The notes beneath the pieces were generated by a model. That model was not told where the DNA came from, did no database searches, and saw only the letters and a list, made by a program, of their open reading frames with translations. From assembly GCA_038245295.1 (NCBI GenBank), contig JBBRSP010000007.1, positions 32,001 through 96,000 of the forward strand: DNA of 64,000 bases, read 5' to 3'. This DNA is from Candidatus Binatia bacterium (GTDB taxonomy: Bacteria > Desulfobacterota > Binatia > HRBIN30). Position numbers and translations under genes: made by a program. Shown here piece by piece: positions 1,391 to 44,091 of the stretch. The first letter of the stretch is position 1; each line of letters opens with the position of its first letter.

Positions 1391-2368
1391 ATGCGCCACT
1401 CGGAACAACTCCTCAAATCAATCGTCTCGACAGCAGCATATACGTTGTTTGCCATCGCACTCGCCTGCAGTCTGGCTAGCGCCAAGGAAAAGGTGAAGAC
1501 CGACCTCATGCCGGGGACTGATGCCGACGCCCAGGGCCAGGTGCGCGTCATGGTACGCAGCGCCACGGACGGACGGTTCGAACTGCGGGTCCGCAACCTC
1601 GACCCCAACTCGACCTTCGACGTTCTGGTCAGTGGTGTCAAAGTCGGCACCGTTACCACGAGCGGCAAGGGTGCCGGCAATAGCCGCTTCCGCTCGCGGC
1701 CGCACGGCCACGACCAGCTTCTCGGCTTCGACCCGCGCGGCACCACGGTCGCCTTACAGAATGCCGCCGGCGACGAGGTCCTCCGGGGTATGGTACCGGC
1801 CGGCACGACGAGCGGCCTGAGCAACGGCAAGATCGCCTGCTGCATCCCCGACGATAGCGGCACCGAATGCGACGACCGCACACCGGACGAATGCACCGCC
1901 CGCGGTGGCAGCCCATCGACCGCGTCGACGTGTCTGCCGAACCCGTGTGGGGCGACCACGCCAAGCCTCGATACGAAGGTTGTCTGCTGTATCCCCGACG
2001 ACGGCGCGCCCGAGTGCGAAGATCGCACCGCCGACCAGTGCGCGGCGCGCGGTGGCATTGTCGTCACGGCCACCAGCTGCACCCCAAACCCATGCGTCGC
2101 ATCAGCCGACGCCTCACCGACCCCGGAGATCGAGCCCTCGCCGACGGCGACCCCAACGCCAGCGACTCCAGGTTCGGTGACGGGAAGTGCGGTCGAAACC
2201 CCGTCGCCGACGCCAGCACCTACCGCGGCTGTCGGTGAAACCGTCGACAAGCACGGCTGCGGCCTCACCGGCGGCAACACGAGCGGCGGCGGCGAAGCCT
2301 CCTCGGGTGGTGGCTCCGGCGGCGGTGGTGGTCGCGCCCCGCGTCCCGGCTACTACGGCGCACCGTGA
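1391..2368 (+). CDS. Secreted protein with two Cys-rich repeats and a Pro/Thr/Gly-rich tail
   Basis: Signal peptide; two about 41-aa repeats CCIPDD..ECxDRTxDxCxARGG...CxPNPC; PT linker. Confidence 0.75.
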   Translation: MRHSEQLLKSIVSTAAYTLFAIALACSLASAKEKVKTDLMPGTDADAQGQVRVMVRSATDGRFELRVRNLDPNSTFDVLVSGVKVGTVTTSGKGAGNSRFRSRPHGHDQLLGFDPRGTTVALQNAAGDEVLRGMVPAGTTSGLSNGKIACCIPDDSGTECDDRTPDECTARGGSPSTASTCLPNPCGATTPSLDTKVVCCIPDDGAPECEDRTADQCAARGGIVVTATSCTPNPCVASADASPTPEIEPSPTATPTPATPGSVTGSAVETPSPTPAPTAAVGETVDKHGCGLTGGNTSGGGEASSGGGSGGGGGRAPRPGYYGAP

Positions 2369-2478: not shown

Positions 2479-3294
2479 TCACTCCACGGTGACCGCACCA
2501 TCTTCGATGATGATGTCGTAGTGGTACCCGAAGCCGAGATCTTTGTCGGCCGTCAGCTTGCCGCGCACCAGCACCATCTTGCCGACAGCGGCCTCAACGC
2601 TCGTGGAGACCGTCAAATCGTTGTTGGGAGCATTGCCGCTGCCGTCCTGGACGTGCAGCCAGTTCTTCTCCATCACACCCGCGGTGTACTTGACGACGCG
2701 ACCGCGCACGGCAACGTCTTTCCCAACGAGGTCTGCTTTCTTCGCATACAGCTCAGCCACGGTCTGGCCGCCGTCGGCTTTCTTGATGTTTGTCAGATCC
2801 ACCTCGGCCGGCTTCGGACCGCCGACCCCATGCGCCGCAGCGCCCGAGTGCGCCGCCATGCCGGCCTCCAGGCCACCTTTCGCGGCGCCATGCGCCGAGG
2901 CTGCGCCAATATTGGCCGGCTTAGCACCAGCCACCTCAATCGCTGAGACGAAATAGACGACATCGAAGGTCCGCCCCAACGTCTTGCTTTGGAAGCCGCG
3001 CATCGCCATGCCACTCGGTACCGTCACCTTGTCCCCGACGGCAACCGTCGTCTGCGGCCCTGCCGCCCAGACCTTCTTCGAACCGTCATCGATCAAAACG
3101 TAGCTGTATTGGCCGGCGTTCATCGCCTCGGCGACTGTGCCGGTGATGCTCGGCGTATTCTCCGAGCCACCGCCCGCATCAGCGGCCGGCGCCGGGGCTT
3201 GTGCCTTGGCGGGTTGGACGTTCGCAGAAAACGCGAGCGCCAAAATCGTTGCGACGGTACACGCGCACGACAGAAGTGGATGTTTCACGATCAT
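2479..3294 (-). CDS. Exported protein with two OB-fold-like domains
   Basis: Signal peptide; GTVAEAMNAGQYSYVLI...VWAAGP and VAVRGRVVK..GVMEKNWLHVQDGSG...DKDLGFGYHY, a conserved deltaproteobacterial hypothetical family. Confidence 0.7.
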   Translation of the reverse strand: MIVKHPLLSCACTVATILALAFSANVQPAKAQAPAPAADAGGGSENTPSITGTVAEAMNAGQYSYVLIDDGSKKVWAAGPQTTVAVGDKVTVPSGMAMRGFQSKTLGRTFDVVYFVSAIEVAGAKPANIGAASAHGAAKGGLEAGMAAHSGAAAHGVGGPKPAEVDLTNIKKADGGQTVAELYAKKADLVGKDVAVRGRVVKYTAGVMEKNWLHVQDGSGNAPNNDLTVSTSVEAAVGKMVLVRGKLTADKDLGFGYHYDIIIEDGAVTVE

Positions 3295-3418: not shown

Positions 3419-3847
3419 ATGCGGCGCCGTCTTCCCTACCCTCTGGTTTGCGCGCTCATGGGTCTCGTCCTCGGCTGGGCTCCGAAGCTGGTGCACGGGC
3501 CGATCCCGGAAAAATACAACCTGCACTACATCCAGGGCGCCATCGCCGTGTGGGCCTGGTACAACGCGCGAATGCTGGTCGGCTTTCTGGTCGGCATCAC
3601 CGCCTGGCCGTCGCGCTGGTACCTGCGCGGGCCCTTGTGCGGACTGATCATGCTGTTCCCGCTCGGCTTCATGTCGCTGGCGACACCCGAGTGTGGCCTG
3701 CCCTGCATGTTCTACAACTGCACGACGGCGTCGCTCGTCGGTCTTACCATTGGCGGCCTCGCCTATCTCTTGACCGGCCGCCATCACCTCTACGATGAGC
3801 CGCGTCCCGCGGCGCCGCAGTCGGTGGCCGATGCCCCCGGAGTCTAA
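3419..3847 (+). CDS. Small integral membrane protein
   Basis: About four hydrophobic segments; 3' end overlaps the cyclase start, suggesting translational coupling. Confidence 0.65.
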   Translation: MRRRLPYPLVCALMGLVLGWAPKLVHGPIPEKYNLHYIQGAIAVWAWYNARMLVGFLVGITAWPSRWYLRGPLCGLIMLFPLGFMSLATPECGLPCMFYNCTTASLVGLTIGGLAYLLTGRHHLYDEPRPAAPQSVADAPGV

Positions 3848-6800
3848 GAGCGCCACCGAAGAGCGCCGCATCGCGACCGTCATGTTCGCTGACATCTCGG
3901 GGTTCACGGCGCTCTCCGAGAAACTCGACCCCGAAGAAGTCACCACGGTCATGAACGGTGCGTTCATCCGCCTGGAGAGTGTCGTCTTCGCCCACGGCGG
4001 CATCGTTGATGAATACCTCGGCGACTGCGTCAAAGCGGTCTTCGGCTTCTCACCCGATATCCAGAACCCCACCTTCCATGCCGTCGAAGCCGCACTCGAG
4101 CTGCGCCAGACACTCTACCAGTACAATATCGACGCCTCGTTGCCGCTACCACTCGACATCCACATCGGCCTGACAACCGGCCCGGTCACCGCGATGATCG
4201 TCGGCGATGAAAACAAGTCCGACTTTTCCGTCTTCGGCGACACGGTGCGGCTCGCCAGCCGATTGGAGGACGTCTCCGATCGCGGCGACATCTTCGTCGG
4301 CCCCGGGACCTTCGCCGCCACCGCCGACGACTTCGAGTTCAAGCCCCGTGATCCAGTCACCTTGCGCCCGTATCCGGAGCCGTTTGCCGTCTACGAGCTG
4401 GTCGGTAAACGCAGCAGCGAGCGTGTCGTGCGCGACAGTGAGCGGCGGCAGGCGAGTGTTTTATTCGCCGAGCTGGTCGGCGTCGATGCTCTCGTCGACA
4501 CCTTCAGCGAGGCCGATCTCACCGAGTTGCTCGGCGAGCTCCTGCACCGCATGGCGCGCTCGGTCAGCTCGTTCGGCGGCTGCGTCGACAAGTATCTCGG
4601 CGAGGGCATCATGGCGCTGTTCGGCGTGCCCAACGCCATCGAGCGGGCGCCGCAACAAGCCATCAACTGCGCCATCGACCTGCGCCACGCCGTCGCCACC
4701 TTCGAACGCGAGCGCAATCTGCCGAGTCCGCTGGCCCTGCACATCGGCGTCAACACGGGACTGTGCATCGCCGGAGAAATCGGCGGGCGCGTCAAGCGCG
4801 ACTTCACCGTCATGGGCGACACGGTCAACCTTGCCGCCCGTCTGAAGGAAGCGGCGCACGGCGGCGACATCTACATCGGCCCCGAAACCTACCGCTATGT
4901 GCGCGGTGAGTTCGAGTTCACACCCACCGAGCCGCTCAAGCTCAAAGGCAAAGCGCAGCCTGTTCCGGCCTACCGTGTGCTCTCCGAGCGCGTCCAGATT
5001 CATCGACAATCGAGCAGCGATGATCGCCGCCTGTTCTCGCCGCTGGTCGGCCGCGACGCCGAGATAGCCCAGATTCGCGACGGCGCTGTCGGCCTGCGAC
5101 GCGGTCACGGCTCCATCCTGGCCGTGATCGCCGAAGCCGGCATCGGCAAGTCGCGCCTGCTCAGCGACGCGTTGCAACCGCAACGCGATGACGGCCAGGT
5201 CATCCTCGCCCGCTCGTTGGCAATCGGCCGCACGATGAGCTTCCACCCCTTCGTCGACCTGCTGCGCCACTGGTGCGGCGTCGGCGAGGAAACCGCCGGA
5301 GCCGAGATCCTTACAAAGCTGGCGCACAGCATGCAGCGTGTGCTCGGCCCGGACAGCGACGACGCGTTGCCGTTCATCGGCCGCCTCATGGGCTTGCCCC
5401 TCAGTCCGGAATCGAGCCAGCGCATGATCGGCATCGACGGCGAAGCCCTCGAGCACTTGATCACCAAACACCTGCGCGACCTGCTTGCCGCCATCGGCCA
5501 ACACGCGCCTCGCGTGCTGGTGTTCGAGGATCTGCATTGGGCCGATCGATCGTCGCTGCGCCTGCTCGAAGAGATCGTACCGCTGGCGCGTGACGTGCCG
5601 CTCCTGTTCGTCCTGGCGACCCGTCCAATCGCCAGCGAAACCAGCGAGCCATTGCTGGCCAACCTGCGAAAGTCCTGCGCCGAGTATTACAGTGAGGTTC
5701 GCCTGGCCCCCCTCGGCAGCAGCGACGCCGAGGCCCTGGTTGCCAATCTCCTGCGCCTCGACGAGATACCAGCCAAACTGCGCGAGGTCGTCACCGGACG
5801 CACCGGCGGCAACCCGTTCTACATCGAAGAAGTGCTGCGCGCCCTGGTCGATCAGGGGGCGATTGAATTTGCGGATGATGCGTATCGAGTGACGCCGAGC
5901 ATCGATACCGTCGCGCTGCCGGGGACGATCCACGAAGTCATCATGAGTCGCGTCGATCGCCTCGACGAACCGGCGCGCCAGGTATTGCGTGTTGCCTCGG
6001 TGATCGGGCGGCAATTTCCGCAACAGGTGCTGGCGCGCGTCGTGCCGCGCGGTAGCCAACTGCAAGTCGACATTGCCACACTGCTCGAACGCCAGCTCAT
6101 CGAGCCGCGGCTGGATGAATGGAGCGTCCCTGTCGGCACCCAAACCTCGAGCCGCGAGCTCGAGTATCTGTTCCGTCACGCGCTGGCCCAAGAGGCCGTG
6201 TATCAGTCGATCCTGCTGCGCAGCCGCAAGGAGCTGCATCAGCAAGTGGCGGTGGCCATCGAACAATCGTTCGCGTCCGACCTGTCGAAGCACTTCTCAC
6301 CAATTGCGCATCACTATCGCCAAGCCGAGCAGTGGGAGCCGGCCGAAGCGTATCTCGTCAAGGCCGGCGTCGTTGCCGCGGCAGCCGCCGCGTCGAGTGA
6401 GGCGTTGGTGTTGTTCAACGACGCCCTCGAGCTCTACAACCGCCTGCACGGCGATGGTGGCGGCGATGCGCGCCACCGCGCCTTGATCGAGAAACACATC
6501 GGCCTCGGACTGCTCAACACCGGCCAGATTCCGGAGAGCATCCCGCATTTCGACGTCGCCTCCGGGCTGCTCGGTGATCCGGCGGGCGACAAGAGCATCC
6601 GCTCCTATGTGCGCGTCGCCGGCGACTTCGCTGCTCTACTCCGTCAACTCTACTTGAGCCGCGGCCACCGGCGCGCCCCAGCCGACATCGAACGCGAGCT
6701 CGAGTGGAGCGACATCCTGTTCAACCGGGCGCGTGCCGAGATCACCAGCGATCCGACCAGATTGTTCCTCGACAACATCAGTGCGCTGCGACGCTTCAAC

Positions 6801-7820
6801 GAGCTCGAGCTGCAGCACTTCGACCAGGCTTGTACGATCTTCGCCTCCGGAGCCGGCCTCTTCTACTACTCCGGCCTGTCGTTCCGCATCGGCAAGCGCA
6901 TCCTCGGGGTCGCCGCCAAGATGGTTCGGCCGGGCAACGTGCGCGACGAATTTCCGTATCGTTCGATGGCGTTCATCGCCGCATATCTCACCGGCGAGTG
7001 GAAGACCGCCGCGACAGTGCCGACGCAACTGGTCGCCGATGCCCTGCGCAGCGGGCAATTCTGGGACGCCAACACGTACATCGGCTTGTACTGCGACATG
7101 TTGCTGCGTCAGGGCCAGTTCGCCGCCGCCGAGCATCAGTTGCAGCAGCTCCAGGAGCTACGCGACGACTATCGCTTTCAGTTTGCCGGAACGAACCACG
7201 ATGGCATGCGCGCCATCTGGTTGATCGAAAGACGCGAGATCGAGGCGGGTATTACCGCCGCCGAGCACTACGCCGATGGCCGCACCGAGGAGCCACTGCA
7301 GGCCTTGTCCTTTGGCACGTTGGCCAAAGCGCTGCTGCTGGGCGGCCGAATCAGCGACGCGGAGCAGGTGTTGGGGCGGGTCGCGACCTTGTCCCGACCC
7401 GGGGAAATCCCGCCTTGGCACATGAGCGCCGTCGCCGCGGCGCGCCTGCGCCTGCATCTCACACAACTGCGCACCGAGCCTGGCAACGGCACTCTACAAC
7501 GTCAGGCCCGTCGCAGTGCGCGGCAGGGGCTGGCGATTACCAATCGCGTGGCAGTGCAGCGCACCGAGATTTTCCGACTGGCCGGCGAGACCCGCTGGTT
7601 GTGCGGTCAAACACGTAAGGCCAAACAGCTCTTCGAGAGGGCGGTGGCCGTCAGCGCCCAACTGGATTGCCAGCCGGAGCTGGCGCGCACCTACGCGGCG
7701 GCTGCCGAGCTGCTGGCGGGTACGAATGACAAGCTCAACGGCCTCAGCCCGACCGAGTGCGGCGCGCGAGCGCAGCAACTGTTCTCCGAGCTCGGCATCG
7801 CCGCTGACGCGCCGCGGTAG
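3831..7820 (+). CDS. Tandem class III adenylate/guanylate cyclase domains + STAND (AAA) NTPase + helical/TPR-like region
   Basis: Cyclase motifs FADISGFT...GD...GDTVRLASRLE and FAELVG...DKYLGE...GDTVNLAARL; Walker A AEAGIGKS; Walker B LVFEDLHWAD; GGNPFYIEE; YLFRHAL. Start could be 3795 or 3831. Confidence 0.9.
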   Translation: MPPESKSATEERRIATVMFADISGFTALSEKLDPEEVTTVMNGAFIRLESVVFAHGGIVDEYLGDCVKAVFGFSPDIQNPTFHAVEAALELRQTLYQYNIDASLPLPLDIHIGLTTGPVTAMIVGDENKSDFSVFGDTVRLASRLEDVSDRGDIFVGPGTFAATADDFEFKPRDPVTLRPYPEPFAVYELVGKRSSERVVRDSERRQASVLFAELVGVDALVDTFSEADLTELLGELLHRMARSVSSFGGCVDKYLGEGIMALFGVPNAIERAPQQAINCAIDLRHAVATFERERNLPSPLALHIGVNTGLCIAGEIGGRVKRDFTVMGDTVNLAARLKEAAHGGDIYIGPETYRYVRGEFEFTPTEPLKLKGKAQPVPAYRVLSERVQIHRQSSSDDRRLFSPLVGRDAEIAQIRDGAVGLRRGHGSILAVIAEAGIGKSRLLSDALQPQRDDGQVILARSLAIGRTMSFHPFVDLLRHWCGVGEETAGAEILTKLAHSMQRVLGPDSDDALPFIGRLMGLPLSPESSQRMIGIDGEALEHLITKHLRDLLAAIGQHAPRVLVFEDLHWADRSSLRLLEEIVPLARDVPLLFVLATRPIASETSEPLLANLRKSCAEYYSEVRLAPLGSSDAEALVANLLRLDEIPAKLREVVTGRTGGNPFYIEEVLRALVDQGAIEFADDAYRVTPSIDTVALPGTIHEVIMSRVDRLDEPARQVLRVASVIGRQFPQQVLARVVPRGSQLQVDIATLLERQLIEPRLDEWSVPVGTQTSSRELEYLFRHALAQEAVYQSILLRSRKELHQQVAVAIEQSFASDLSKHFSPIAHHYRQAEQWEPAEAYLVKAGVVAAAAAASSEALVLFNDALELYNRLHGDGGGDARHRALIEKHIGLGLLNTGQIPESIPHFDVASGLLGDPAGDKSIRSYVRVAGDFAALLRQLYLSRGHRRAPADIERELEWSDILFNRARAEITSDPTRLFLDNISALRRFNELELQHFDQACTIFASGAGLFYYSGLSFRIGKRILGVAAKMVRPGNVRDEFPYRSMAFIAAYLTGEWKTAATVPTQLVADALRSGQFWDANTYIGLYCDMLLRQGQFAAAEHQLQQLQELRDDYRFQFAGTNHDGMRAIWLIERREIEAGITAAEHYADGRTEEPLQALSFGTLAKALLLGGRISDAEQVLGRVATLSRPGEIPPWHMSAVAAARLRLHLTQLRTEPGNGTLQRQARRSARQGLAITNRVAVQRTEIFRLAGETRWLCGQTRKAKQLFERAVAVSAQLDCQPELARTYAAAAELLAGTNDKLNGLSPTECGARAQQLFSELGIAADAPR

Positions 7821-8181: not shown

Positions 8182-9729
8182 TCACCAGAACAGCACGCCG
8201 AGGAGCGCCGCGATCGCGATCGCGACACAAACCCACGCAAACACATCACCGAACCGCTCGTACACCGACACTTCCGACGAGGCATGCACCGAGCCGCGGA
8301 CCGTCGCACGGGTGAACAGCTTACTCCTCACTTCGACCACTCCGCTCGGTGCGACGATGGCCGACGGCCCGGCGGTCGACGCCCGTACCAGGTAACGACG
8401 CTGTTCGACGGCCCTGAAACGCGCCATGTCGAAGGCAATGCCGGAGAACGTGGCGTCGCTCACCCACGTGTCGTTGGTCAGGTTGATGAGCAACTGTGCG
8501 CCGCGGCGCACGGCGTCGCCGGAGAGATCCGGGAACATCGCCTCGTTGCAGATGACGACACCGGCCGGCCCAGCAACGGTTGGCAGGATGACCGGCTCCG
8601 CCGCCGCGGTGAATTGCCGGACCTTGCCGAAATCGCGCTGCAGCAGGTCACTCCAGGCAAATGGGAAATATTCGGCAAACGGCAGGAGTCGCTGCTTGTC
8701 ATAACGCAAGCGTGGTCGACCCGAGGGGTCGATCAGGAATGCCGAGTTGAAATAGGTTTCACCGGTTGCGGTGACATCGCGATGTGGTCCACCGACAACC
8801 AGCTGCGCCTTGTGCGGTCCAAGCACGCTGCCAATCGATGCCTGATACGCGGGTTCTTCCTCGACGAAGAAAGTCATGGCGCTCTCTGGCCACACGACCA
8901 GCGCGGCAGGCTGCTTGCGCAACTCGTCCAAGGTGGCGCGCAGATAGGTTTCGAGGTTGCGACCGTAGAGGTCCTGGTGCCACTGCGAACCAAGGTCGAG
9001 GTTGTCTTGCACGATCAGCACGGTCGTCGCCTCGGTCGCCGGCGACGTCCGCGCCAGGCGCACCTCGCCATACGCCAGGGCTACAACCAAACACGCGGAC
9101 GCCACAGCCACCGAGGGCCATGCCGCGCGTGGACCGCTCCAGCGTGCCATCAACTCGACGAGTGAGAAGCTGACCAGGGCCAACAGCCAGGTGACCCCAT
9201 ACACGCCGGTGATGTCGGCAATCTGCATGATCGGCAGGACGCCGCTTTGGCTGTAGCCCCACAACACCCACGGGTTACCGGTGAGCACCGACGAACGGAA
9301 GAATTCGCCCGCCACCCAGGCGGAGGCGGCGGCCGGCGGCACCATCCAGGTCGGCAAACGACAGAGACGGCCATAAGCCGCACCCACCACGGCATAGGGC
9401 GGCACGACCATGAGCAGCACAACGGCGGCAAACATCAGCCAACCGAGCCAGATCGGCTGATGGAAGTAGATGTTCACCGTGCGCGGTAGCCACGCCACGG
9501 TCATTACCGCACCGGCACTCGCCAGAACCCCGCCGAGGAACGCACCGCGACCGCTGTGACAGCGACGCAGGACAAACAAGGCCGGGAGCAACACTACCCA
9601 GGCGAGCCAGCGCCAGGCGAACGGCGGGAAACAGGTTCCGTACAACAGGCCCGACACCACCATCACCGCGACATCGGCAATGATCCCGCCGCGGTGGTGC
9701 TTGACATCCGCAGGGTCGCGGCGCGACAT
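8182..9729 (-). CDS. lnt: Apolipoprotein N-acyltransferase
   Basis: Membrane N-terminus with GNPW..WGYSQ and ADITGVYG; nitrilase triad WPES, YDKQRLLPFAEY, ICNE; RAVEQRRYLVRA. Start uncertain (9729 or 9741). Confidence 0.9.
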   Translation of the reverse strand: MSRRDPADVKHHRGGIIADVAVMVVSGLLYGTCFPPFAWRWLAWVVLLPALFVLRRCHSGRGAFLGGVLASAGAVMTVAWLPRTVNIYFHQPIWLGWLMFAAVVLLMVVPPYAVVGAAYGRLCRLPTWMVPPAAASAWVAGEFFRSSVLTGNPWVLWGYSQSGVLPIMQIADITGVYGVTWLLALVSFSLVELMARWSGPRAAWPSVAVASACLVVALAYGEVRLARTSPATEATTVLIVQDNLDLGSQWHQDLYGRNLETYLRATLDELRKQPAALVVWPESAMTFFVEEEPAYQASIGSVLGPHKAQLVVGGPHRDVTATGETYFNSAFLIDPSGRPRLRYDKQRLLPFAEYFPFAWSDLLQRDFGKVRQFTAAAEPVILPTVAGPAGVVICNEAMFPDLSGDAVRRGAQLLINLTNDTWVSDATFSGIAFDMARFRAVEQRRYLVRASTAGPSAIVAPSGVVEVRSKLFTRATVRGSVHASSEVSVYERFGDVFAWVCVAIAIAALLGVLFW

Positions 9730-9739
9730 CGTTGCCGTC

Positions 9740-10837
9740 ATGACGAGTGCGTCTCTGCCGCCCCTGCGCCAACTTGTCCAGGCCATCCCCACGGAATGTT
9801 ACCGGCGCCCGATGTGGCGCGGCATCGCTTACCTGGTGCGCGCGACGCTGATCTACGCCCTGCTCCTGGCCGCCCTGTGGTACACCGACCAGCCACTGGC
9901 ACTGCTACTACTGTGGCCGCTGGCGGGCCTGGCGATCAGCGGGCTGTTCGTGTTGGCACACGACGCGGCGCACGACGCACTGTTCGAATCGCGCGCCTTG
10001 AACCAACTGATGGCCCGTCTCGCCCTGCTGCCAACCCTACACGCGGCGGCCGTGTGGACACTCGGGCACAACCGCATCCACCACGTCCACACCAACCGAG
10101 TCGATTACGATTTCGTCTGGCACCCGTTGTCGCCAGTACAATTTGCCGAGCTCACACCCTGGCAGAAGTTGAACCATCGCTTCGAGTGGAGCACCGCCGG
10201 CATGGGCTGGTACTACCTGCGGCGCATCTGGTGGGAACGCATGATGCGCTTTCCTGCGCCGGGACGCTTTGCGCCTCTGTTCCGCGCCGATCGTATCGTG
10301 GTTGTGCTGTACGCCACTCTCTGGTCGCTTTGCCTGGCGGGTCTCGGCTATCGCCACGGCGGCACCGTGTCGGCCGTGTGGACCTGGTGCAAGCTCGGGC
10401 TGATGCCTTGGCTGCTGTGGAACTACTTCATCGCCGCAACCGTATTCGTGCAACACACGGCACCCCGCGCGCCATGGCTACGCGGCGACGAATGGAAGCG
10501 CAATCGCGGCCAGCTCGAGTCGTCGACCAACTATCTCGTGCCTGGTTGGTATAATCTCTTCGCGCACAACATCTACCTGCACCTGCCGCATCACATCGAC
10601 GCCAGGATCCCGTTCTACAACCTACCCGCCGCTCTAGCGGCCTTGCGGCGCACCTATCCGCACCTCGTCCGCGTCAGCCGCCTCGGCTGGCGTCACTTCC
10701 TCCACCTGCAGCGGCACTGCAAACTCTACGACTTCGAACGCGGCGCCTGGCTCGACTATCGCGATGCGGCGGCGGTGTTGGTGACCACACCGCCAGCGTC
10801 GGCGACTGCCACCAACGGTGCCGCAACGGCGGCGTAG
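9740..10837 (+). CDS. Membrane fatty acid desaturase (delta-12/omega-6-like)
   Basis: His boxes HDAAH, HNRIHH, HLPHH; IPFYNL motif. Confidence 0.9.
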   Translation: MTSASLPPLRQLVQAIPTECYRRPMWRGIAYLVRATLIYALLLAALWYTDQPLALLLLWPLAGLAISGLFVLAHDAAHDALFESRALNQLMARLALLPTLHAAAVWTLGHNRIHHVHTNRVDYDFVWHPLSPVQFAELTPWQKLNHRFEWSTAGMGWYYLRRIWWERMMRFPAPGRFAPLFRADRIVVVLYATLWSLCLAGLGYRHGGTVSAVWTWCKLGLMPWLLWNYFIAATVFVQHTAPRAPWLRGDEWKRNRGQLESSTNYLVPGWYNLFAHNIYLHLPHHIDARIPFYNLPAALAALRRTYPHLVRVSRLGWRHFLHLQRHCKLYDFERGAWLDYRDAAAVLVTTPPASATATNGAATAA

Positions 10838-11529
10838 ACGCGGGCGAGCAATTCCTCCGGCGTCGCGCTGTCGCTCGGAGAGATGGCTGCGCCGATATGC
10901 AGCGTGGCGACGATCGGCGGGCCGGCGGCAACACGGTCGCGGATATGGCACCACAAGCTCAGGTCCTCGACCCAATGGGCGCGTTGTGTGTCGTAGATGA
11001 TCGTCGCGGGAATGATCGGCACGGCAGTGCGGTGCAGCAGGCGAAACAGGCCCAGGGGAAATTCTGCCGGCAGAGCCGCATCGCTAGTCGTGCCTTCGGG
11101 GAAGATGGCGACCGGGGCTTGGGCCAAGCGCCGCAACAGCACGCGCGCCGCGCGGGCCCGGCCACTCAACGCGTCGCGATCAACGAACACGGCGCCAATT
11201 TCCTGCAGCACCGGGCCAATCAGCGGCCAATCGACGACATCGCCACGACATAAGAACGTCGTACGAAACGCCGATCCAACGACCAGGGCATCGAGATAGC
11301 TGCGGTGATTGACGATGATCGCGCCACTCTGTAGCGGCACGACTCCGACGGTGTGCAGCCGCAGGCGCAAGGCTCGGCGTGCCCACGGACTCCAGCCGTG
11401 CAGCATCCCCACCGCAACGTCCTGAGCGTCGCCCCGTCGACTCTTGGTCAACCGATGGAACAAGAGACAGGCATAGCCGCTCACAATCAAAAACCCGGCG
11501 CCGGCCACGGCGCGCCAGGTTGCTCGCAT
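10756..11529 (-). CDS. Lysophospholipid acyltransferase (PlsC-like)
   Basis: NHRSYLD and FPEGTTS motifs; 3' end overlaps the desaturase. Confidence 0.85.
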   Translation of the reverse strand: MRATWRAVAGAGFLIVSGYACLLFHRLTKSRRGDAQDVAVGMLHGWSPWARRALRLRLHTVGVVPLQSGAIIVNHRSYLDALVVGSAFRTTFLCRGDVVDWPLIGPVLQEIGAVFVDRDALSGRARAARVLLRRLAQAPVAIFPEGTTSDAALPAEFPLGLFRLLHRTAVPIIPATIIYDTQRAHWVEDLSLWCHIRDRVAAGPPIVATLHIGAAISPSDSATPEELLARVYAAVAAPLVAVADAGGVVTNTAAASR

Positions 11530-11732
11530 TTCGGCTGCTTCCACGCTGGCGCATCGTCTCGCCGATCGTGCCTCGACGCAAGTGTTGGAACTGGGGTGAG
11601 CTCCGTCGTCCCGGCAAAGGCGGCCCGGTTCCAAGGGATGGCAATCGTCAGAGCGAAACCCCTTTCACAGCCTGGGGTCGTTGCACACGGCACCGACGTT
11701 GCATCTCTCTGCGCGACAGAGGGCTCGAGACG

Positions 11733-13361
11733 ATGGAAAGATCGGAGTTCGACGTCGTCATCATTGGTGGTGGGCATAACGCCCTGACCTGCGCCGCCTA
11801 CCTGGGCAAGGCCGGGGTCGATGTATGCATCCTCGAGGGTCGCCACGAATGGGGCGGCGCCGTCTACACCGCCGAACACACGGCCCCAGGCTTCTGCCAC
11901 AACATCCACTCCAATTTCATGGAGTTCCTGCACATCATGCCGTTCTTCGAGGATTTCGATTTGCCGAGCCTTGGAGCGCGGACGATCTTTCCCGAGGCGC
12001 AGGCGGGCATGCCGTTCGCCGATGGCCGGCCGCCGGTCATCATTTACCGCAACGACATGATCGAGCGGACCTGTAAGAACTTCGCTGTCTACTCGCAGCA
12101 TGACGCCGACACCTGGCGTGCGCTGAAGACGCAGGCCAACAACCTCGAGCCCCTGTTCGCGATGGGCCTCTACACGCCGCCCGCACTGATCGACTTCAAC
12201 GGCCCTCTGCCCAATCCGCACGAGGGCACGATGATGATGATGAAGATGTTCGGCCTCGATCCCGAGCTGGCCTTCAAGTCGATTCGCGACTGCATTGATG
12301 AGCTCTTCGAGACCGACGAGATCCGCGCCATGTTCTATCGCGTCGCCGTCGAGTTCTGCGGCCCGCCGATCGAATGGCCCGGCACCGGTGGGCTGTTCCT
12401 GTTCTCGTGCCTGATCATGCCCGGGTGCTGGCGCATGATGGTTGGTGGCTCACATCGTTTGAACGGCGCCATGGTCACCGCGTGTTTGAAGAATGGCGTC
12501 ACCATGCGCGAGGCGAGCCGCGTCAAGAAGGTCATCCTCGAAGGTGGCAAGGCGGTCGGTGTCGAAACCGTCGACGGACACAAGTACATGGCGCGCCAGG
12601 CCGTGGTCAGCGGTATCGGTTTGAAAGACACGTTTCTCGATCTGGTCGGCGAAACGCATCTTTCCGATTACGCCCAACGACGCATCAAGAACTACAAAGA
12701 CGGCCCGGATCAGGTCCTGGGCTCGGTGGCGATGGCGCTGCACGAGGCACCTCATTACAAATCAGCGGCCCACGACCCGGATGTCGACAAGGCGTGGTAC
12801 CAGATCGTCGGCTACGACTGCGCCAAGGATGTGCTCGACTACAACCGCGCCGGTCACATCGATCGCATTCCCGACCTGCCGGCGGCCGGGGTGTGGATCA
12901 ATTCGATCTGGGACAAGACCCAGGCTCCCGACGGCAAACACAACCTCACCGGCTGGTACTTCTTCCCGCGCGCCAGTGCGCTCAACGAAGCACAGTGGGA
13001 CGACGTCAAGGCGACGTACAACGCGCGTTTCTTGTCGCTGTACGAGAAGTTCGCGCCCAACATGACACCGAGCAACGTCATCGCCGACTATCTGCACACA
13101 CCACTCGATCAAGAGCGCGGCATGCGCATGCGCGAAGGCGATTTCGGCCACGGCGCGATGAGTATCGACCAGCTCGTCGGCATGCGGCCGTACGCCGGGG
13201 CCGGACGCTACTCGACCGAGATTCCAGGATTGTATCTGTGTGGCAGCTGCACCCACCCAGGCGGCGGAGTAACCGCCGCGCCCGGGTACAACGCGTTCAA
13301 GATCCTGTGCGAGGACTTCGGTTATCCCGAGGTGTGGCGCAGCAACACGCGCCCCTACTGA
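11733..13361 (+). CDS. FAD-dependent oxidoreductase, phytoene dehydrogenase-like (COG1233, CrtO/PYROXD2-like)
   Basis: VIIGGGHNAL Rossmann motif; C-terminal GLYLCGSCTHPGGGVTAAPGYNA. Confidence 0.85.
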   Translation: MERSEFDVVIIGGGHNALTCAAYLGKAGVDVCILEGRHEWGGAVYTAEHTAPGFCHNIHSNFMEFLHIMPFFEDFDLPSLGARTIFPEAQAGMPFADGRPPVIIYRNDMIERTCKNFAVYSQHDADTWRALKTQANNLEPLFAMGLYTPPALIDFNGPLPNPHEGTMMMMKMFGLDPELAFKSIRDCIDELFETDEIRAMFYRVAVEFCGPPIEWPGTGGLFLFSCLIMPGCWRMMVGGSHRLNGAMVTACLKNGVTMREASRVKKVILEGGKAVGVETVDGHKYMARQAVVSGIGLKDTFLDLVGETHLSDYAQRRIKNYKDGPDQVLGSVAMALHEAPHYKSAAHDPDVDKAWYQIVGYDCAKDVLDYNRAGHIDRIPDLPAAGVWINSIWDKTQAPDGKHNLTGWYFFPRASALNEAQWDDVKATYNARFLSLYEKFAPNMTPSNVIADYLHTPLDQERGMRMREGDFGHGAMSIDQLVGMRPYAGAGRYSTEIPGLYLCGSCTHPGGGVTAAPGYNAFKILCEDFGYPEVWRSNTRPY

Positions 13362-13410
13362 GGGAACCGCCGCACGTTGAACCGCCGAGACAAGCGCGAG
13401 GGCTCGAACG

Positions 13411-15012
13411 ATGGGAATGTTTGAAAACGGTTTCGATGCAATCGTGATAGGTGCCGGACACAACGGCATGTCGCTGGCCGCCTATCTGGCCAAGAGCGGC
13501 TGGAGTGTGGCGGTGCTCGAACGCCGCACCGAAGAAGGCGGCGGCCTCAACACCGAAGAAGTCACCGAGCCAAACTTCCTGCACAACCTGCACTCCAACT
13601 ACCACTCACTGGTCGGCCTGAGCCCGGTCTACGATGACCTCGAACTGCTCGACAACGGCGTCGACTACGTGCTGCCCGACGTTCAGATGGGCAGCATCTT
13701 CGCCGACGGCACGGCGCTCACCATCCACACCGACATGCGCAAGACCTACGACAGCTTTGCGCGTTTCTCGAAGAAGGATGCCGACACGTGGATGCGCCTC
13801 TGGGATGAGGTCGGCGGTTACATGGATCTGATGGTGCGCACACTCATGTTCGCGCCGCCCATCAAGCTGAACGACCTGACGCGTGCCCTCGCCTCCTGGG
13901 GCGTCGAAGAGCGCTCGGAGTTTCTGACGGCGCGCCTGCGCTCGATCTCGGTAGCCGACTTCCTCGACAAGCACTTCGAGAACGATCGCATCAAGGCGAT
14001 GCTCGCCTTCCACGCGGCGATCTGCGCCTACCAGCCGCACATCAAGGGCCTGGCGGTGACATTGCCGGTCCTGCTCGGCAAGATCGCCAATTGGCACCTG
14101 TGCAAAGGCGGCAGCCATCGCCTGGCGCACGCCTTGATGCGCGTCATCGTCAAAGCCGGCGGACGTGTCTTTCCACAGGTTCCGGTCGAAGAGATTGTCG
14201 TCGAAAACGGGCAGGCCGTCGGCGTGCGCACGCCGGATGGATTCATTCGCGCCCACAAACTGGTCGCCTCGAGTGTCGACGTGAATCAGACGTTCGAGAA
14301 GCTCCTCAAGCGTGAACACGTCGCCGACAGCACAGCCGCAGCGGTAGCGGAGGTGCAGTACCAGGACGCGACGCTGTTCAATGTGCACCTCGCGATGAAC
14401 GGGTTGCCGCGATACAAGGCGGCGAGTTTCGACCCCGACATCGAACGCGCCTGGATCTTGAACATCGGCTTCGAGTCGCTGGCCGACTTCAAGGACGAGT
14501 TCGATCGTATCCGTACCGGACAGCTGCCAGCGTCGCCGCGGCTCAATGTCGCCGTCAACTCGCTCTACGACCCGACCGACGCCCCCGAAGGCAAGGCAAC
14601 CGGGCTCATTCGTGTCTTCGCTCCATTCGGGCTGGCCGACGGCGGACCGGAAGCATGGCGTGGCGCCGCGAAGGACTTCGGACGCCGTTGCGTCGAACGT
14701 TGGGCCAGTGTCTGCACCAACATGAACGATGACCTGATCCGCATGTGGGTTGCCGAGACGCCGTACGACATCAGTCAGAAGATCATCAACTATCGCTTCG
14801 GCGACTGGATGGTGGGACGCATTCATCCGAAGAGTTTACTCGAGCACCGTCCGACCGACGAGTTGGCGCAGTACCGCACACCGATCAAAGGCCTGTACAT
14901 GTGCGGCGCCTCGCAGCATCCGCACGGCTACATCACGTTCGCCCCTGGATACAATTGCCTGGGCATCATCGCCGACGATTACGGAATGGACAAATGGTGG
15001 CAACACATCTGA
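13411..15012 (+). CDS. Second COG1233 phytoene dehydrogenase-like oxidoreductase
   Basis: IVIGAGHNGM; YRTPIKGLYMCGASQHPHG..APGYN. Confidence 0.85.
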   Translation: MGMFENGFDAIVIGAGHNGMSLAAYLAKSGWSVAVLERRTEEGGGLNTEEVTEPNFLHNLHSNYHSLVGLSPVYDDLELLDNGVDYVLPDVQMGSIFADGTALTIHTDMRKTYDSFARFSKKDADTWMRLWDEVGGYMDLMVRTLMFAPPIKLNDLTRALASWGVEERSEFLTARLRSISVADFLDKHFENDRIKAMLAFHAAICAYQPHIKGLAVTLPVLLGKIANWHLCKGGSHRLAHALMRVIVKAGGRVFPQVPVEEIVVENGQAVGVRTPDGFIRAHKLVASSVDVNQTFEKLLKREHVADSTAAAVAEVQYQDATLFNVHLAMNGLPRYKAASFDPDIERAWILNIGFESLADFKDEFDRIRTGQLPASPRLNVAVNSLYDPTDAPEGKATGLIRVFAPFGLADGGPEAWRGAAKDFGRRCVERWASVCTNMNDDLIRMWVAETPYDISQKIINYRFGDWMVGRIHPKSLLEHRPTDELAQYRTPIKGLYMCGASQHPHGYITFAPGYNCLGIIADDYGMDKWWQHI

Positions 15013-15515
15013 TGGCAACTCTGGATACCCGGCCCGATGTGTTGCCGGTGGTCCTCGTGGGTGACGATCAGGCCAGTGGTCTGGCCGACATGCTGCGCCA
15101 ATTCATCGAACAAACGCTGGCCGAGTCGCCACGCAAGCAACGCCAGGCGCGGTCCCTGTCAGGGGCAACCCTGTTCCGCTCGGCCGAGGACGACGACCTC
15201 TGTGTCTGCATCACGTTCGCCGGCGATCACATCGAATTGCGCGACGAAGCGACACCACCAGTCGGCCTACCAGCGATCACCGCCGACTTCCTCACCATCG
15301 CCCACTTGACGTCGGGGCAAGCGAATCCGTTCTGGTTGCTGGCACGGCGCCGGCTCCAAGCGCGCTTCACAATCCGCCAGGTGCCGTTTCTGCTGCGGCT
15401 GCTGCGTTTCATGCGAATCGAGCGGCATGCTCCATCAAATCAGATGGAAACTCCCCCTCTCCCAGCAGGACCGAATCTGCCTGAGCCGGGAGAGGAAGCG
15501 CCACGGACCCGCTAA
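15012..15515 (+). CDS. SCP2-like small protein
   Basis: ATG overlaps the upstream TGA (TGATG); AITADFLTIAHLTSGQANPFWLLARRRLQ resembles an SCP2 C-terminus. Confidence 0.55.
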   Translation: MATLDTRPDVLPVVLVGDDQASGLADMLRQFIEQTLAESPRKQRQARSLSGATLFRSAEDDDLCVCITFAGDHIELRDEATPPVGLPAITADFLTIAHLTSGQANPFWLLARRRLQARFTIRQVPFLLRLLRFMRIERHAPSNQMETPPLPAGPNLPEPGEEAPRTR

Positions 15516-15535
15516 ATGTTCCAAGGAGGCAACCC

Positions 15536-15988
15536 ATGTCGGTGATTTACTCGGATGCTTGGTATGAAGACATGAAGCGGCTGATCAACGGCTCCGAGCA
15601 ACTCGCGAAGCTGGCCCCCAAGATCCGGATCGCCTTTTCGCTCGAAGTGATGGGCGACGGGGCGTCGCCGTATGTCCCGAAGGATGGCGGCCGCTACTTT
15701 CTCTTGGCGATCGAGAACGGCAAGGTTACGGATTTTTGCCCGCTACCGGAACGCCATGATGGCAAGGGTCTCAACTTCCGCTTCACCGCCCCGGCGACCA
15801 TCTGGGAAGGCGTTGCCGCCGGCACGAACGATCCCATCCGCTGCGGCCTGCGCGGTCAGATCAAGGTGCGCGGCGATATGAAGTTCCTGATGGAGAATGC
15901 CGACGCGGTAAAGCTCGCCATCGATCTGTACGGTCACCAGGTGAACACCGAGTGGCCGCTGGGGGCGCCGCCGTATGTGCATGCCTGA
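15536..15988 (+). CDS. SCP2 sterol/lipid-binding domain protein
   Basis: AGGAGG RBS; FRFTAPATIWEGV..G.NDPI..GLRGQIKVRGDMKFLM. Confidence 0.8.
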   Translation: MSVIYSDAWYEDMKRLINGSEQLAKLAPKIRIAFSLEVMGDGASPYVPKDGGRYFLLAIENGKVTDFCPLPERHDGKGLNFRFTAPATIWEGVAAGTNDPIRCGLRGQIKVRGDMKFLMENADAVKLAIDLYGHQVNTEWPLGAPPYVHA

Positions 15989-19239: not shown

Positions 19240-20694
19240 GTGGCCATGTCACGTTACGCTTATGAGCGCCTGACGGCGCTCGACAACAGCTTCCTCATCT
19301 TCGAGAGCGCCAATACCCCGATGCATGTCGCCACCGCAGCCACCTTTGAAGCGACGCCATTGCGCCACGCCGACGGCGGCGTCGACATGCAACGCATCCT
19401 GCACTACGTCGAATCGCGACTACACCTCATGCCGCGTTATCGCGAGCGACTCGCGTATATCCCGTTCGAAGATCATCCCGTGTGGGTCGACGACGAACGC
19501 TTCAACATCCTTTACCACGTGCGTCACACGGCCTTGCCGCGACCCGGGTCCGAGCGTCAGCTGAAACGGCTGTGTGCGCGCATCCTGTCGCAGCAACTCG
19601 ATCGCGGCAAACCGCTGTGGGAGATGTGGGTCATCGAAGGGGTGGAGGGCAATCGGCTCGCCATCATCACCAAGATGCACCACTGCATGATCGACGGCAT
19701 CGCCGGAGTCGACCTGCTCGCTTCACTGATGACGAACGAACCTAGCAAGCGTAATGCGTCGATCCCCGAGCCGAAGCGCTGGATCCCACGACCAACGCCA
19801 ACCCCGAGAGAGTTGTTGCGGGACGAGATCCTGACGCGTCTGCAGGCCCCCCTCAGCCTGCTCGGCCAGTTGTTGCAACAACCCAGCGAAGTCCTCGCCA
19901 ACGTCCGCGCCGGTGCCGCCGCCGTCGCCGAAGTGTTGCAAGGCGCGACACATCTCGCCTCGGATACCCCCTTGAATCGGCCGATCGGTCCGCATCGGCG
20001 ATTCGACTGGCTGACCATGGAGATGGACGCCTTACAGGAGATCCGCGAGCACCTCGGCGGCACACTCAACGAGGTCGTGTTGACGATCGTCAGCGGCGCC
20101 GTCCGACGCTTCCTCACGCAACGCAACATCGACGTCGACCAGATCGACTTCCGCGTCTTCGTACCGGTCAACGTCCGCCAGCCCGAAGCACACGCCAAGC
20201 CAGGCAATCAGGTGGCGGCCTGGATCATCGATTTACCCGTTCGTGAACCCGACGTCTTGCAACGACACGAACAACTACGGCGTCACACAGACCACGCCAA
20301 ACATTCGCAGCAGACCAAGGGTACCCAGATCCTCGTGGAGGCGACCGAGTGGACCGGCACAACCGTCCTTGGCCTGGCGACCCAATTGATGGAGCGCACC
20401 CTCCCCTTCAACATGGTCGTCACCAATGTGCCCGGCCCACCAAAGGCGCTGTATCTTCTCGGTGCCCGCATGTTGGCGCTGCATCCGATGGTGCCGTTAT
20501 TCGTCAACCAGGGACTCGGGGTGGCGCTGTTCAGCAACGCCGGGCGCTTGTTCTGGGGGTTCAACGCCGACTGGGACGTGGTCCCCGATCTCCACCAGTT
20601 TGTCGAGGCGATCTCCGCCTCGTTCGAAGAGTTACACGCGCTGGCGGCGCCGCGTCGCACCGCCACGCCACGACGTCGGCGAAGAGCGGCGTAG
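19240..20694 (+). CDS. Wax ester synthase/diacylglycerol acyltransferase (WS/DGAT)
   Basis: RLTALDNSFL, PMHV, LDRGKPLWE, catalytic HHCMIDG, VVTNVPGP. Confidence 0.92.
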   Translation: MAMSRYAYERLTALDNSFLIFESANTPMHVATAATFEATPLRHADGGVDMQRILHYVESRLHLMPRYRERLAYIPFEDHPVWVDDERFNILYHVRHTALPRPGSERQLKRLCARILSQQLDRGKPLWEMWVIEGVEGNRLAIITKMHHCMIDGIAGVDLLASLMTNEPSKRNASIPEPKRWIPRPTPTPRELLRDEILTRLQAPLSLLGQLLQQPSEVLANVRAGAAAVAEVLQGATHLASDTPLNRPIGPHRRFDWLTMEMDALQEIREHLGGTLNEVVLTIVSGAVRRFLTQRNIDVDQIDFRVFVPVNVRQPEAHAKPGNQVAAWIIDLPVREPDVLQRHEQLRRHTDHAKHSQQTKGTQILVEATEWTGTTVLGLATQLMERTLPFNMVVTNVPGPPKALYLLGARMLALHPMVPLFVNQGLGVALFSNAGRLFWGFNADWDVVPDLHQFVEAISASFEELHALAAPRRTATPRRRRRAA

Positions 20695-26327: not shown

Positions 26328-27197
26328 CTAGCGGAGCTTGCGCAACCTCGGCACAGCCTTCTTCCGCGGCGATGCGCGGCCGGCAAAGCGGTGCAGCAAT
26401 CGCGCGCCCAGTGTTGCGTCCGGATCATTGCGGCGCCTGCGCTGCAGCAGCTTGATGCCGCGTTCGACGGCGGCCGACACTTCGGCGCGCAATTCGAGAC
26501 AGGCGACCTGATCGTCGGCACGCCCGGCCCACGGCTGCGTTTCAATTGGTGCTCCGAAGCGGAAATAGAACCGTTGCGGCCGCGGCAGCGGCCCGATGCC
26601 GGCAACGACGGGCGGCAATTCGTCGGCCCGCGGTGTCAGCGACTCGAGAAAGGGACCGATCGGGCTGCGCCGCATCTCGTCGCTATCAATGAGGATGTCG
26701 TAACACTCTTCGGCGCCGACCGAGGCGAACGGGACAATCGGATAGCCGTGCTTGATCGCCAGCGCGGCGAAGCCGATGCGGTTCTTCCAGATCAGGTGAT
26801 ACTGCTCGCCCTTGTGCTTGAAGACCTCGCGACCACCACCTGGAAAAACGAGGACCGATTCGCCGGCGCGCATCAGGGCGGAGCAGTTGTCACGCGTCCC
26901 GTCGACCGCTCCGAAACGCGTCAACACGTCGCGCCACAGCGGCACCTGGAAATGCAGATGATCCCCGAGGGCGCGCACCATCAAACCGGTACGCTCGTGC
27001 AAGCCGAGCAGCATCAGCGGGATGTCGAGCACCCCCATGAGAGTGTGATTACCGACCAACAGGAACGGTCGGTCGGTCGGGACGTTCTCCACCCCGACGA
27101 ACAGGGGGGATGTCAGCATTCGCCACGGCTCGAGTAGAACCCGTGCCGCGGCCATGGCTTCGGCAGTCGGCCGGCGTCCGGCGACGGCGCGTCTCAT
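26328..27197 (-). CDS. Lysophospholipid/diacylglycerol acyltransferase family protein
   Basis: LLVGNHTLMGVLD, VLVFPGGGRE, PIVPFASVGAEE. Confidence 0.85.
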   Translation of the reverse strand: MRRAVAGRRPTAEAMAAARVLLEPWRMLTSPLFVGVENVPTDRPFLLVGNHTLMGVLDIPLMLLGLHERTGLMVRALGDHLHFQVPLWRDVLTRFGAVDGTRDNCSALMRAGESVLVFPGGGREVFKHKGEQYHLIWKNRIGFAALAIKHGYPIVPFASVGAEECYDILIDSDEMRRSPIGPFLESLTPRADELPPVVAGIGPLPRPQRFYFRFGAPIETQPWAGRADDQVACLELRAEVSAAVERGIKLLQRRRRNDPDATLGARLLHRFAGRASPRKKAVPRLRKLR

Positions 27198-43525: not shown

Positions 43526-43864
43526 TTAGGCGCCAAGAATCTCGTTGAGGCCTTCCAGCACCTGCGCCAACTCTTCAGGCGACGCCCGCGCGAGCCGCTT
43601 CCCAATGCGCTCCGTCGCTAACGTCCGGATCTGGCTAATTTTGACCCACGATCGTTTGGGCAAACGGGGCGCCGTCAACTCCAGCGTCAGTGGAAACCCT
43701 GCCCGTTGTGCCTGGCTCGTCAACGCGACCGCGATGACCGTTCCCGAGCGTTCGTTGAAGACATCATGGCTCAGGACCAACACCGGCCGTTGTCCGCCCT
43801 GCTCACTCCCTTGCGTCGGGTTGAGATCCGCCCACCGGATCTCAACCCTCAATATTCCGGCCAT
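43526..43864 (-). CDS. mazF: PemK/MazF family toxin
   Basis: WADLNPTQGSEQGGQRPVLVLS; SQIRTL..ERIG. Confidence 0.9.
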   Translation of the reverse strand: MAGILRVEIRWADLNPTQGSEQGGQRPVLVLSHDVFNERSGTVIAVALTSQAQRAGFPLTLELTAPRLPKRSWVKISQIRTLATERIGKRLARASPEELAQVLEGLNEILGA

Positions 43865-44091
43865 CGCGCGACGTTCCCCGCGAGCCCCTCCTCCGCCATC
43901 GCACACTCGGCCAGCGGATCGAGCTTCGCGCACTCGTCGGCAAGCCGTCGCCGCTCGAGCCGCTCGAGCTGCGCCGAGACGGCAGCTTCAATCGCCTGAC
44001 TACGGTTTGGATACCGGGCATCGCGCACGAGACGGTCGACCCGCCGAAGCGTTTGGGTGTCGAGCGTAACGGCGACCTTCGTTTTGGCCAT
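43849..44091 (-). CDS. Ribbon-helix-helix antitoxin
   Basis: MAKTKVAVTLD...YPNRSQAIEAAV; overlaps the toxin start; GTAT-gcga-ATAC palindrome and TAGAAT upstream. Confidence 0.85.
   Translation of the reverse strand: MAKTKVAVTLDTQTLRRVDRLVRDARYPNRSQAIEAAVSAQLERLERRRLADECAKLDPLAECAMAEEGLAGNVARWPEY

Follow-up and report, generated by a model that had tools for sequence, protein, structure and literature searches.

The window analysed here is a stretch of 64,000 nucleotides of contig JBBRSP010000007.1 (positions 32,001 to 96,000, forward strand; assembly GCA_038245295.1) from a Candidatus Binatia bacterium, and near its start lies the gene for a protein of 1329 amino acids in which two class III cyclase domains, D1 and D2, follow each other directly and are succeeded by a STAND NTPase and a helical tail. 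This tandem-cyclase protein divides the residues of one catalytic site between its two domains, which are joined by a link of only some ten residues. The gene and its parts, in window coordinates, are:

3831..7820, forward strand: tandem-cyclase STAND protein (P0001), 1329 amino acids, frame open throughout
3852..4415, forward strand: cyclase domain D1 (residues 8-195), in the C1 role, with D21, D65, H111 and the GFT loop
within 3852..4415, forward strand: D1 residues of the second pocket, E61, S133, R140 and R144
4410..4439, forward strand: short D1-D2 link (residues 194-203), from the last D1 strand to the first D2 strand
4431..4994, forward strand: cyclase domain D2 (residues 201-388), in the C2 role, with K254, T326, N333, R337 and K372-G-K374
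within 4431..4994, forward strand: D2 metal positions, E214 and E258
4806..4808, forward strand: Thr326, the class IIIb base-specifying residue (Asp324 lies at 4800-4802)
5040..5612, forward strand: STAND NTPase, AAA_16 (residues 404-594), Pfam E-value 1.9e-16
5130 and 5520, forward strand: Walker A (AEAGIGKS) and Walker B (VFEDLHW), respectively
6468..7817, forward strand: helical, TPR-like C-terminal region (residues 880-1329), the presumed sensor

This reading frame and order of domains had been proposed in an initial annotation and are borne out by the Pfam matches, PF00211 occurring twice and AAA_16 once; all the motifs quoted there are present as well (FADISG at residue 19, DEYLGD at 60, VRLASR at 139, FAELVG at 212, DKYLGEG at 253, RDF at 323 and VNLAAR at 332). 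D1 and D2 align with each other without gaps at 36% identity. Family counts given below refer to 120 listed matches among the 4434 that passed, made up of 92 tandem homologs, 22 spaced proteins (domains ~210-300 residues apart), five single-domain proteins and one unclassified. Both Walker motifs are intact in the window protein, and they are present in 90/92 (Walker A) and 91/92 (Walker B) of the tandem homologs. The look-alikes of the tail in the Atlas are TPR clusters (a lead only), and TPR families of Pfam match some of the homologs.

Across the family, D1 supplies the metal ligands and D2 most of what remains of a single site. The first metal-binding Asp is found in D1 of 89/92 tandem homologs and the second in 91/92, the remainder being gaps in truncated rows, and D1 also retains the GFT phosphate loop and H111, which is the counterpart of K144 in soluble adenylyl cyclase (sAC) by the alignment ranges and Table 1 of PMC12867704. 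In D2, Asn and Arg are both kept in 92/92 and Lys in 76/92 (with Gln in the other 16), and the KGK lid is retained as well, while Asn survives in D1 of only five. Site 1, made of the D1 Asp pair and D2 Asn/Arg, is complete in 89 of the 92 homologs, the other three being truncated, and the reverse arrangement, site 2, is complete in none; the complementary substitutions that the initial annotation had expected are thus conserved and not a matter of chance, and one complete composite site (D1 metal ligands with D2 Lys/Asn/Arg) beside one degenerate site is a family-wide feature. Sequence-weighted conservation (47 effective sequences) distinguishes 18 columns held in D1 only from 31 held in D2 only, and the five single-domain relatives mostly retain both sets. 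The metal-binding Asp residues of D2, previously described as lost, are indeed absent from the window protein, though not simply so: both are now Glu, and an acidic pair stands at these positions in 61/92 homologs, as Asp/Asp in 24.

The base-specifying position, seven residues before the Asn, is Thr in 85/92 tandem homologs and Ser in 7/92; in the window protein it is T326, opposite which the alignments show Asp for AC8 C2 and Thr for C2 of human sAC. Class IIIb cyclases combine the class III fold with a Thr in place of the substrate-binding Asp (PMC2613629), and by its fold and T326 the window protein belongs with the class IIIb nucleotidyl cyclases. Conversion of ATP to cyclic AMP (cAMP) and a response to CO2 or bicarbonate are further traits of that class. 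Since T326 is the base-specifying residue, the site is of the Lys/Thr type and not of the Lys/Asp type of mammalian transmembrane adenylyl cyclases, and 'mammalian-style', the term first applied to it, is better replaced by 'sAC-style'. The same alignment to AC8 C2 and sAC C2 rules out D324, the Asp of 'RDF', as the adenine-specifying residue that it had been taken for, this residue lying nine positions before the Asn. The Lys/Thr pair points to ATP as the substrate.

The geometry of the site was approached with an AlphaFold2 model of residues 1-400 of the window protein, built on 91 family rows. The domains are confident (pLDDT, the per-residue confidence, 90.8) but the predicted template modelling score, pTM, is 0.56; each domain overlays single cyclases closely (CyaB: Z 28.7, 1.5 Å over 190 residues), although the D1-D2 pair as a whole lies ~20 Å from sAC and AC9 (template modelling score 0.36-0.42). 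As a control we folded, on the same 91 rows, the homolog P0091, which has ~50 extra low-complexity residues in its linker: here the pTM is 0.85 and the two domains form a canonical C1/C2 pair with overlays at 2.5-3.3 Å, including those on sAC (4CLK: Z 36.0, 2.5 Å, 353 residues) and AC9 (9U3R: Z 41.3, 2.7 Å, 363 residues). The spacing of equivalent positions between the two domains has a median of 193 in the tandem family (n=91; 80/91 at or below 197) and of 219 in 53 bacterial sAC-like proteins. The latter come from 120 metagenome loci of a motif scan, of which 109 carry the motif in an open reading frame and 53 allowed both domains to be parsed; chosen by its DKG motif, this set may not span the whole lineage. 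In the window protein the ~10 residues 194-203 join the strands, and the motif R201-x-S203-E204-R205-R206 at their end is conserved, with R201, S203 and E204 at 96-98%, so that these three are probably bound rather than free.

The models predict that D1 and D2 meet in a canonical C1/C2 interface wherever the tether permits, and that the link of ~10 residues precludes such an interface within one chain of the window protein. The 'single-chain' dimer first proposed for it is accordingly not supported by prediction: the lack of a predicted intrachain interface, which the initial annotation had named as grounds for refutation, is what the model of the window protein shows, while the model of its long-linker homolog has the interface. 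Because of this pair of outcomes we lean towards pairing between chains in the window protein, which would also fit its ancestry, since single-domain cyclase-STAND proteins must likewise pair between chains, as single-domain class III cyclases do in general.

The best explanation, on which we are evenly divided, is that the protein acts as a class IIIb adenylyl cyclase that can be switched, its one site forming between chains upon STAND assembly. In the resting state the STAND module would be kept closed by the TPR-like tail and the chains would stay separate, leaving no composite site. A signal, likely one linked to the modification of lipids or lipoproteins, would trigger the exchange of nucleotide and the assembly of chains, by which D1 of one chain would be set on D2 of the next, and the one Lys/Thr site at each interface would then convert ATP to cAMP. 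That assembly might act as the on-switch is suggested by analogy with the general behaviour of STAND proteins.

Several points weigh against this reading. For pairing between chains the basis is a single pair of AlphaFold2 models, from two different sequences; such models may overlook an intrachain fold that is strained, and AlphaFold2 has also seen many C1/C2 pairs. Spacings near that of the tandem family (196-203) occur in 4/53 sAC-like proteins, and since the spacing reaches 200-243 in 11/91 tandem homologs, intrachain pairing is probably feasible for some members. The 24 D2 domains with Asp/Asp also hold Asn/Arg and two D1 domains hold all four residues, which makes homodimeric activity possible in some members; where Gln replaces K254 the base may differ. 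Synthesis of cAMP by the tandem protein is a prediction from its residues, and the link to lipids comes from the gene neighbourhood. A rather unlikely alternative, in our view, is an intramolecular pseudo-heterodimer as in sAC, with D1 and D2 of the same chain paired and the STAND module regulating them allosterically. Its attraction lies in the complementary residues of D1 and D2, the canonical pair predicted within P0091, the short spacings of some sAC-like proteins and the precedent of sAC and clade A PycC, which operate in this way (PMC3383692 and PMC11224242); yet no such interface is predicted for the window protein in spite of its confident domains, and just ~10 residues, with three almost invariant and probably bound positions among them, link the strands. 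A two-copy complex prediction (residues 5-392; score 0.08, mark 0.42, controls not folded) was used neither way.

The four short-spaced sAC-like proteins are L102, L111, L128 and L165, of which L102, L128 and L165 form a long-branched clade of their own in the tree and offer a natural test of the linker argument.

The tandem family provides bacterial proteins suited to showing whether STAND assembly builds an active site, a matter that bears on how the STAND module of sAC controls its catalytic core. Kobayashi, Buck and Levin reportedly described bacterial sAC-like proteins in 2004. With these and with human ADCY10 (4CLF, 4CLK) the window protein shares the order C1-C2-STAND-TPR and the allotment of two Asp to the first domain and Lys/Thr/Asn/Arg to the second, and the P0091 model shows the canonical interface that sAC has. 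It differs from them in having ~25-50 fewer residues between its domains, in the predicted pairing between chains, and in its D2, which reads KYLGEG and lacks the FDKG-type beta2-beta3 loop found in C2 of human and bacterial sAC-like proteins alike. Mammalian AC1-9 (class IIIa) likewise derive one catalytic and one degenerate site from unequal domains, and the AC9 overlay of P0091 has been given above; they differ in carrying Asp where the window protein has Thr326, in being under G-protein control rather than attached to STAND-TPR, and in their two membrane bundles, for which the window protein has no room, D1 starting at residue 8 and D2 five residues past D1. The best per-domain matches in sequence and fold are single-domain class IIIb cyclases (CyaB 3R5G, CyaC and Cya2 2W01), which must pair as symmetric homodimers with two sites.

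Closer relatives are single-cyclase STAND-TPR proteins (P0117-P0121; TIGR03903-like part), which are 46-53% identical per domain, hold the full catalytic set and must pair in that manner too; the tandem family has doubled this domain and divided its roles. The tree of the domains unites D1 and D2 with the single-domain and the spaced proteins in one clade (SH-aLRT 99), outside which stand the clades of C1 (99) and C2 (100). On the sample used for that tree (21 tandem, 5 spaced and 16/53 sAC-like), D1 and D2 have mean identities of 46% and 53% to the single-domain cyclase-STANDs, compared with 26% for D1-C1, 30% for D2-C2, 23% for both D1-C2 and D2-C1, and 21% for C1-C2. Over 649 columns of cyclase plus STAND (9 tandem, 4 spaced, 4 single-domain, 10 sAC-like and 7 own-genome sequences), a clade of tandem and sAC-like proteins is rejected by the approximately unbiased (AU) test (p-AU 0.002). 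Best trees and identities thus favour a duplication separate from that of sAC, the outcome of a check that the initial annotation had called for, and we consider a separate origin of the tandem form likely, the ancestor apparently being a single cyclase domain of the cyclase-STAND subfamily that was duplicated. Bassler, Schultz and Lupas are said to have described repeated origins of pseudo-heterodimers in 2018.

If the protein instead belonged, as a divergent member, to the lineage of bacterial sAC, its D1 and D2 would go back to the ancient duplication that gave rise to C1 and C2. The shared domain order and Lys/Thr class agree with this, as does the slightly greater nearness of D1 to C1 and of D2 to C2, and with cyclase columns alone a grouping of D2 with sAC-like C2 is not rejected, either in a small tree (8 tandem, 2 spaced and 8 sAC-like; p-AU 0.175) or on the sample of the domain tree (p-AU 0.407). 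The small tree even joins D1 to C1 (support 84, with a long-branch warning), and all the trees are quick trees without bootstrap. We nevertheless think such descent quite unlikely: the 36% gapless identity of D1 to D2 stands against a C1-C2 mean of 21%, D2 is without the DKG loop of sAC C2, and the cyclase-plus-STAND columns reject it, though with a sAC-like set picked by that DKG motif. The one sAC-like protein compared with the PDB had human sAC as its top match.

The spaced form (P0060, P0070, P0073, P0079, P0082 and P0093-P0116; 22 proteins) is a clade of its own (support 100; tree of 39/91 tandem and 9/22 spaced proteins, P0071 excluded as truncated) and has the opposite polarity, with Asn/Arg in the first domain and the Asp pair in the second in 22/22; in its first domain the Thr is replaced by His, Ala or Asn. 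P0087 may represent a further separate duplication. One subfamily includes forms with a single domain, tandem forms and forms in which the whole unit is duplicated, these last with opposite polarity, and it therefore offers a natural series from symmetric two-site cyclases to one-site enzymes with a free pocket, and to reuse of that pocket.

The second pocket of the window protein comprises E214 and E258 of D2 with E61, S133, R140 and R144 of D1, and is probably non-catalytic, though it may bind a guanine nucleotide. The bicarbonate-binding pair of human sAC, K95/R176, is confined to mammalian sAC and is not reproduced here, E61 standing at K95 and S143 at R176 (by an equal-length match of query 107-159 to sAC 140-192). 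R140 was considered as the counterpart of the R176 switch and rejected, as it maps to D173.

Glu occupies the D1 Lys position in 32/92 homologs, the window protein included; every one of these has Arg in place of the Asn, and 17 have Cys and nine Ser at the second base-specifying position, while an acidic pair is kept in D2 of 29/32 (20 as Asp/Asp) against 32/60 among the other homologs. Glu with Cys is the guanylyl pair of rhodopsin-GC structures (from alignments; 6AOA by its title). This co-occurrence raises the alternative that the second pocket is a guanine-nucleotide site, which would sense GTP, cyclic GMP or a related nucleotide, or make cyclic GMP; one protein would then couple or produce two messengers, in either geometry. 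An sAC from salmon, listed with Arg at the Asn position, is active (Table 1 of PMC12867704). The Glu class is, on the other hand, mostly one clade plus P0091 (~12 effective sequences), so that shared ancestry may account for the co-occurrence; D2 no longer has the Thr of the GFT loop (Asp or Glu in 56/92), D1 has lost the KGK lid, and the residues of the window protein itself are Ser, not Cys, and Glu/Glu, not Asp/Asp. We judge this alternative unlikely, and guanine-nucleotide binding by the second pocket doubtful.

A subfamily with Gln for the base-specifying Lys in D2 (P0045, P0048, P0050, P0051, P0053, P0055-P0059, P0061, P0062, P0064, P0065 and P0067) also has Glu/Lys/Cys/Arg in D1 and Asp/Asp in D2, and on these residues its members are the strongest candidates for altered specificity or a functioning guanine site.

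Two consecutive cyclase domains also occur in the bacterial PaPycC (6YII), of clade A (PMC11224242), on which the P0091 model overlays with Z 32.2, 2.9 Å and 350 residues. PycC proteins of clades A-D produce cyclic UMP and work together with a cyclic-nucleotide receptor, whereas the window protein has a purine-type Lys/Thr site and a STAND fusion; no cyclic-pyrimidine receptor effector was seen among the window open reading frames scanned with Pfam, and the gene upstream of the cyclase had no PADLOC match. An anti-phage role, in which the cyclase of an NLR-like sensor would produce an alarm nucleotide, much as Avs or Pycsar systems act, is suggested by the N-terminal enzyme domain on STAND-TPR, by matches of PADLOC PycC profiles to the cyclase domains (best 6.8e-36) and by a patchy distribution: the tandem cyclase is present in 15/201 genomes of the class, and in a sample of the phylum in 2/301, both from that class. 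It is very improbable all the same. The PADLOC matches extend no further than the generic cyclase fold, with none to a STAND defence profile; the scanned neighbours are lipid-modifying genes and include no cyclic-nucleotide-binding or other defence effector; and the gene occurs once per genome, in surroundings that are stable. In its own genome it is the single tandem-cyclase gene among the cyclase matches, and its close homologs carry the label Deltaproteobacteria. A plasmid search gave no tandem member among the 30 matches listed of 663, which look like single-domain cyclases matched twice.

The gene immediately upstream of the cyclase had been put forward as its coupled partner:

3419..3847, forward strand: hydrophobic protein of 142 amino acids with the motif C92-x3-C96 (codons 3692-3694 and 3704-3706), overlapping the cyclase start by 17 nucleotides

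The overlap is real, although the gene lies directly 5' of the cyclase in only five of 14 loci (that of the window and four from genomes that share another family), and in one more the distance is 6.5 kb; these 14 are the window and 13/14 other matches in the class, the truncated G149 match being left out. It is found in 14 of the 15 cyclase genomes and in 57 of the 186 others, that is, in 71/201 genomes of the class against 15/201 for the cyclase. The gene is thus at most a partial partner, and an obligate partnership was rejected, since adjacency is limited to five of the 14 loci, four of them from one family.

The upstream protein has no match in Pfam, NCBIfam or PADLOC; it has 515 homologs, and its Atlas clusters are unnamed. 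Among 72 copies aligned over the motif, Cys92 is kept in all, while position 96 is Cys in 41 and an in-frame TGA in 31 (29/66 genomes), and the identity over the 26 residues past position 96 is 12.1 in TGA copies and 12.3 in Cys copies. A stem like that of a selenocysteine insertion sequence, with 8/8 pairs and beginning 17 nucleotides from the first base of the UGA, accompanies 24/31 TGA copies and 0/41 Cys copies, its positions having been defined on the TGA copies themselves. The selB gene was matched in 26/29 TGA genomes (the three misses being 58-89% complete) versus 12/37 Cys-only genomes. The family is thus probably a CxxxU membrane selenoprotein family, whose members would be cut short at the UGA by genome annotation. 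The window genome has the Cys form and no selB match, and all five cyclase-adjacent copies are Cys. Members with either residue are the window gene itself, L023, L024, L034, L037, L040 and L047-L084. The CxxxU family is absent from the 119 families in Table 1 of the 2026 inventory, in the available portion of that paper (PMC13188914), and four family motifs had no match in the supplements available for PMC12013277; a literature search on the family gave no match, with slight coverage of subscription papers that leaves absence from print unproven.

Downstream of the cyclase lie genes of lipid and lipoprotein modification:

8182..9792, reverse strand: Lnt-like N-acyltransferase with LNT_N and CN_hydrolase, its true start probably somewhat inside the open reading frame
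9680..10837, forward strand: fatty acid desaturase, nearby in 6/14 loci
10756..11634, reverse strand: PF01553 acyltransferase, nearby in 5/14 loci

The most constant neighbour is the Lnt-like gene, within ~7 kb in 12/14 loci; one miss is a contig end (L095) and the other is real (L099). The cyclase-adjacent Lnt-like proteins belong to at least three sublineages, interleaved with the other Lnt paralogs of their genomes, and most show the triad motifs; since there are several sublineages, the link is more than one inherited block, although the kin are not independent. An FAD oxidoreductase is nearby in 5/14 loci, once with a cyclopropane synthase. These neighbours suggest that the signal may be tied to lipid or lipoprotein modification.

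Two-domain cyclases with one site are known already from sAC and Plasmodium ACbeta (PMC3383692) and from clade A PycC (PMC11224242), and with them the two-domain layout. New here are this tandem family, its short-tether geometry, its Lnt/lipid context, its neighbour from a probable selenoprotein family and the guanine-like pocket of a subclade; our literature search found no publication on the tandem family, although subscription papers were mostly outside its coverage and absence from print is unproven. Taken jointly, these elements would describe a separately evolved pseudo-heterodimer too short to self-close, in which STAND assembly joins D1 to a neighbour's D2 as a coincidence switch, the leftover pocket serves as a guanine-nucleotide sensor, and the input combines lipid or lipoprotein remodelling with a membrane CxxxC/CxxxU thiol-selenol partner from an uninventoried selenoprotein family, a composite that we regard as quite unlikely to hold in full.

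The surroundings of the gene offer some further observations. The window genome has about seven Lnt-like genes (that at 8182-9792, and others on contigs C1, C2, C3 and C29), an unusual expansion, and around 20 STAND genes; three single-cyclase genes stand in a row at G000:C2:239439-247038, two with a STAND match and the third without one in frame. Further lipid-related genes lie in window segments 11379-15988, 19240-20691 and 26331-27197: two tandem FAD oxidoreductases, an SCP2-like gene, a wax ester synthase/DGAT and a second acyltransferase, and a PemK/MazF-family toxin gene of toxin-antitoxin type lies at 43529-43933 (reverse strand). Ahead of the small gene at 3419-3847, the frames at 1391-2368 (forward strand) and 2479-3294 (reverse strand) each encode a protein that is probably secreted and for which no Pfam match exceeded the cut-off; the first has repeated CC-IPDD..ECEDR motifs.

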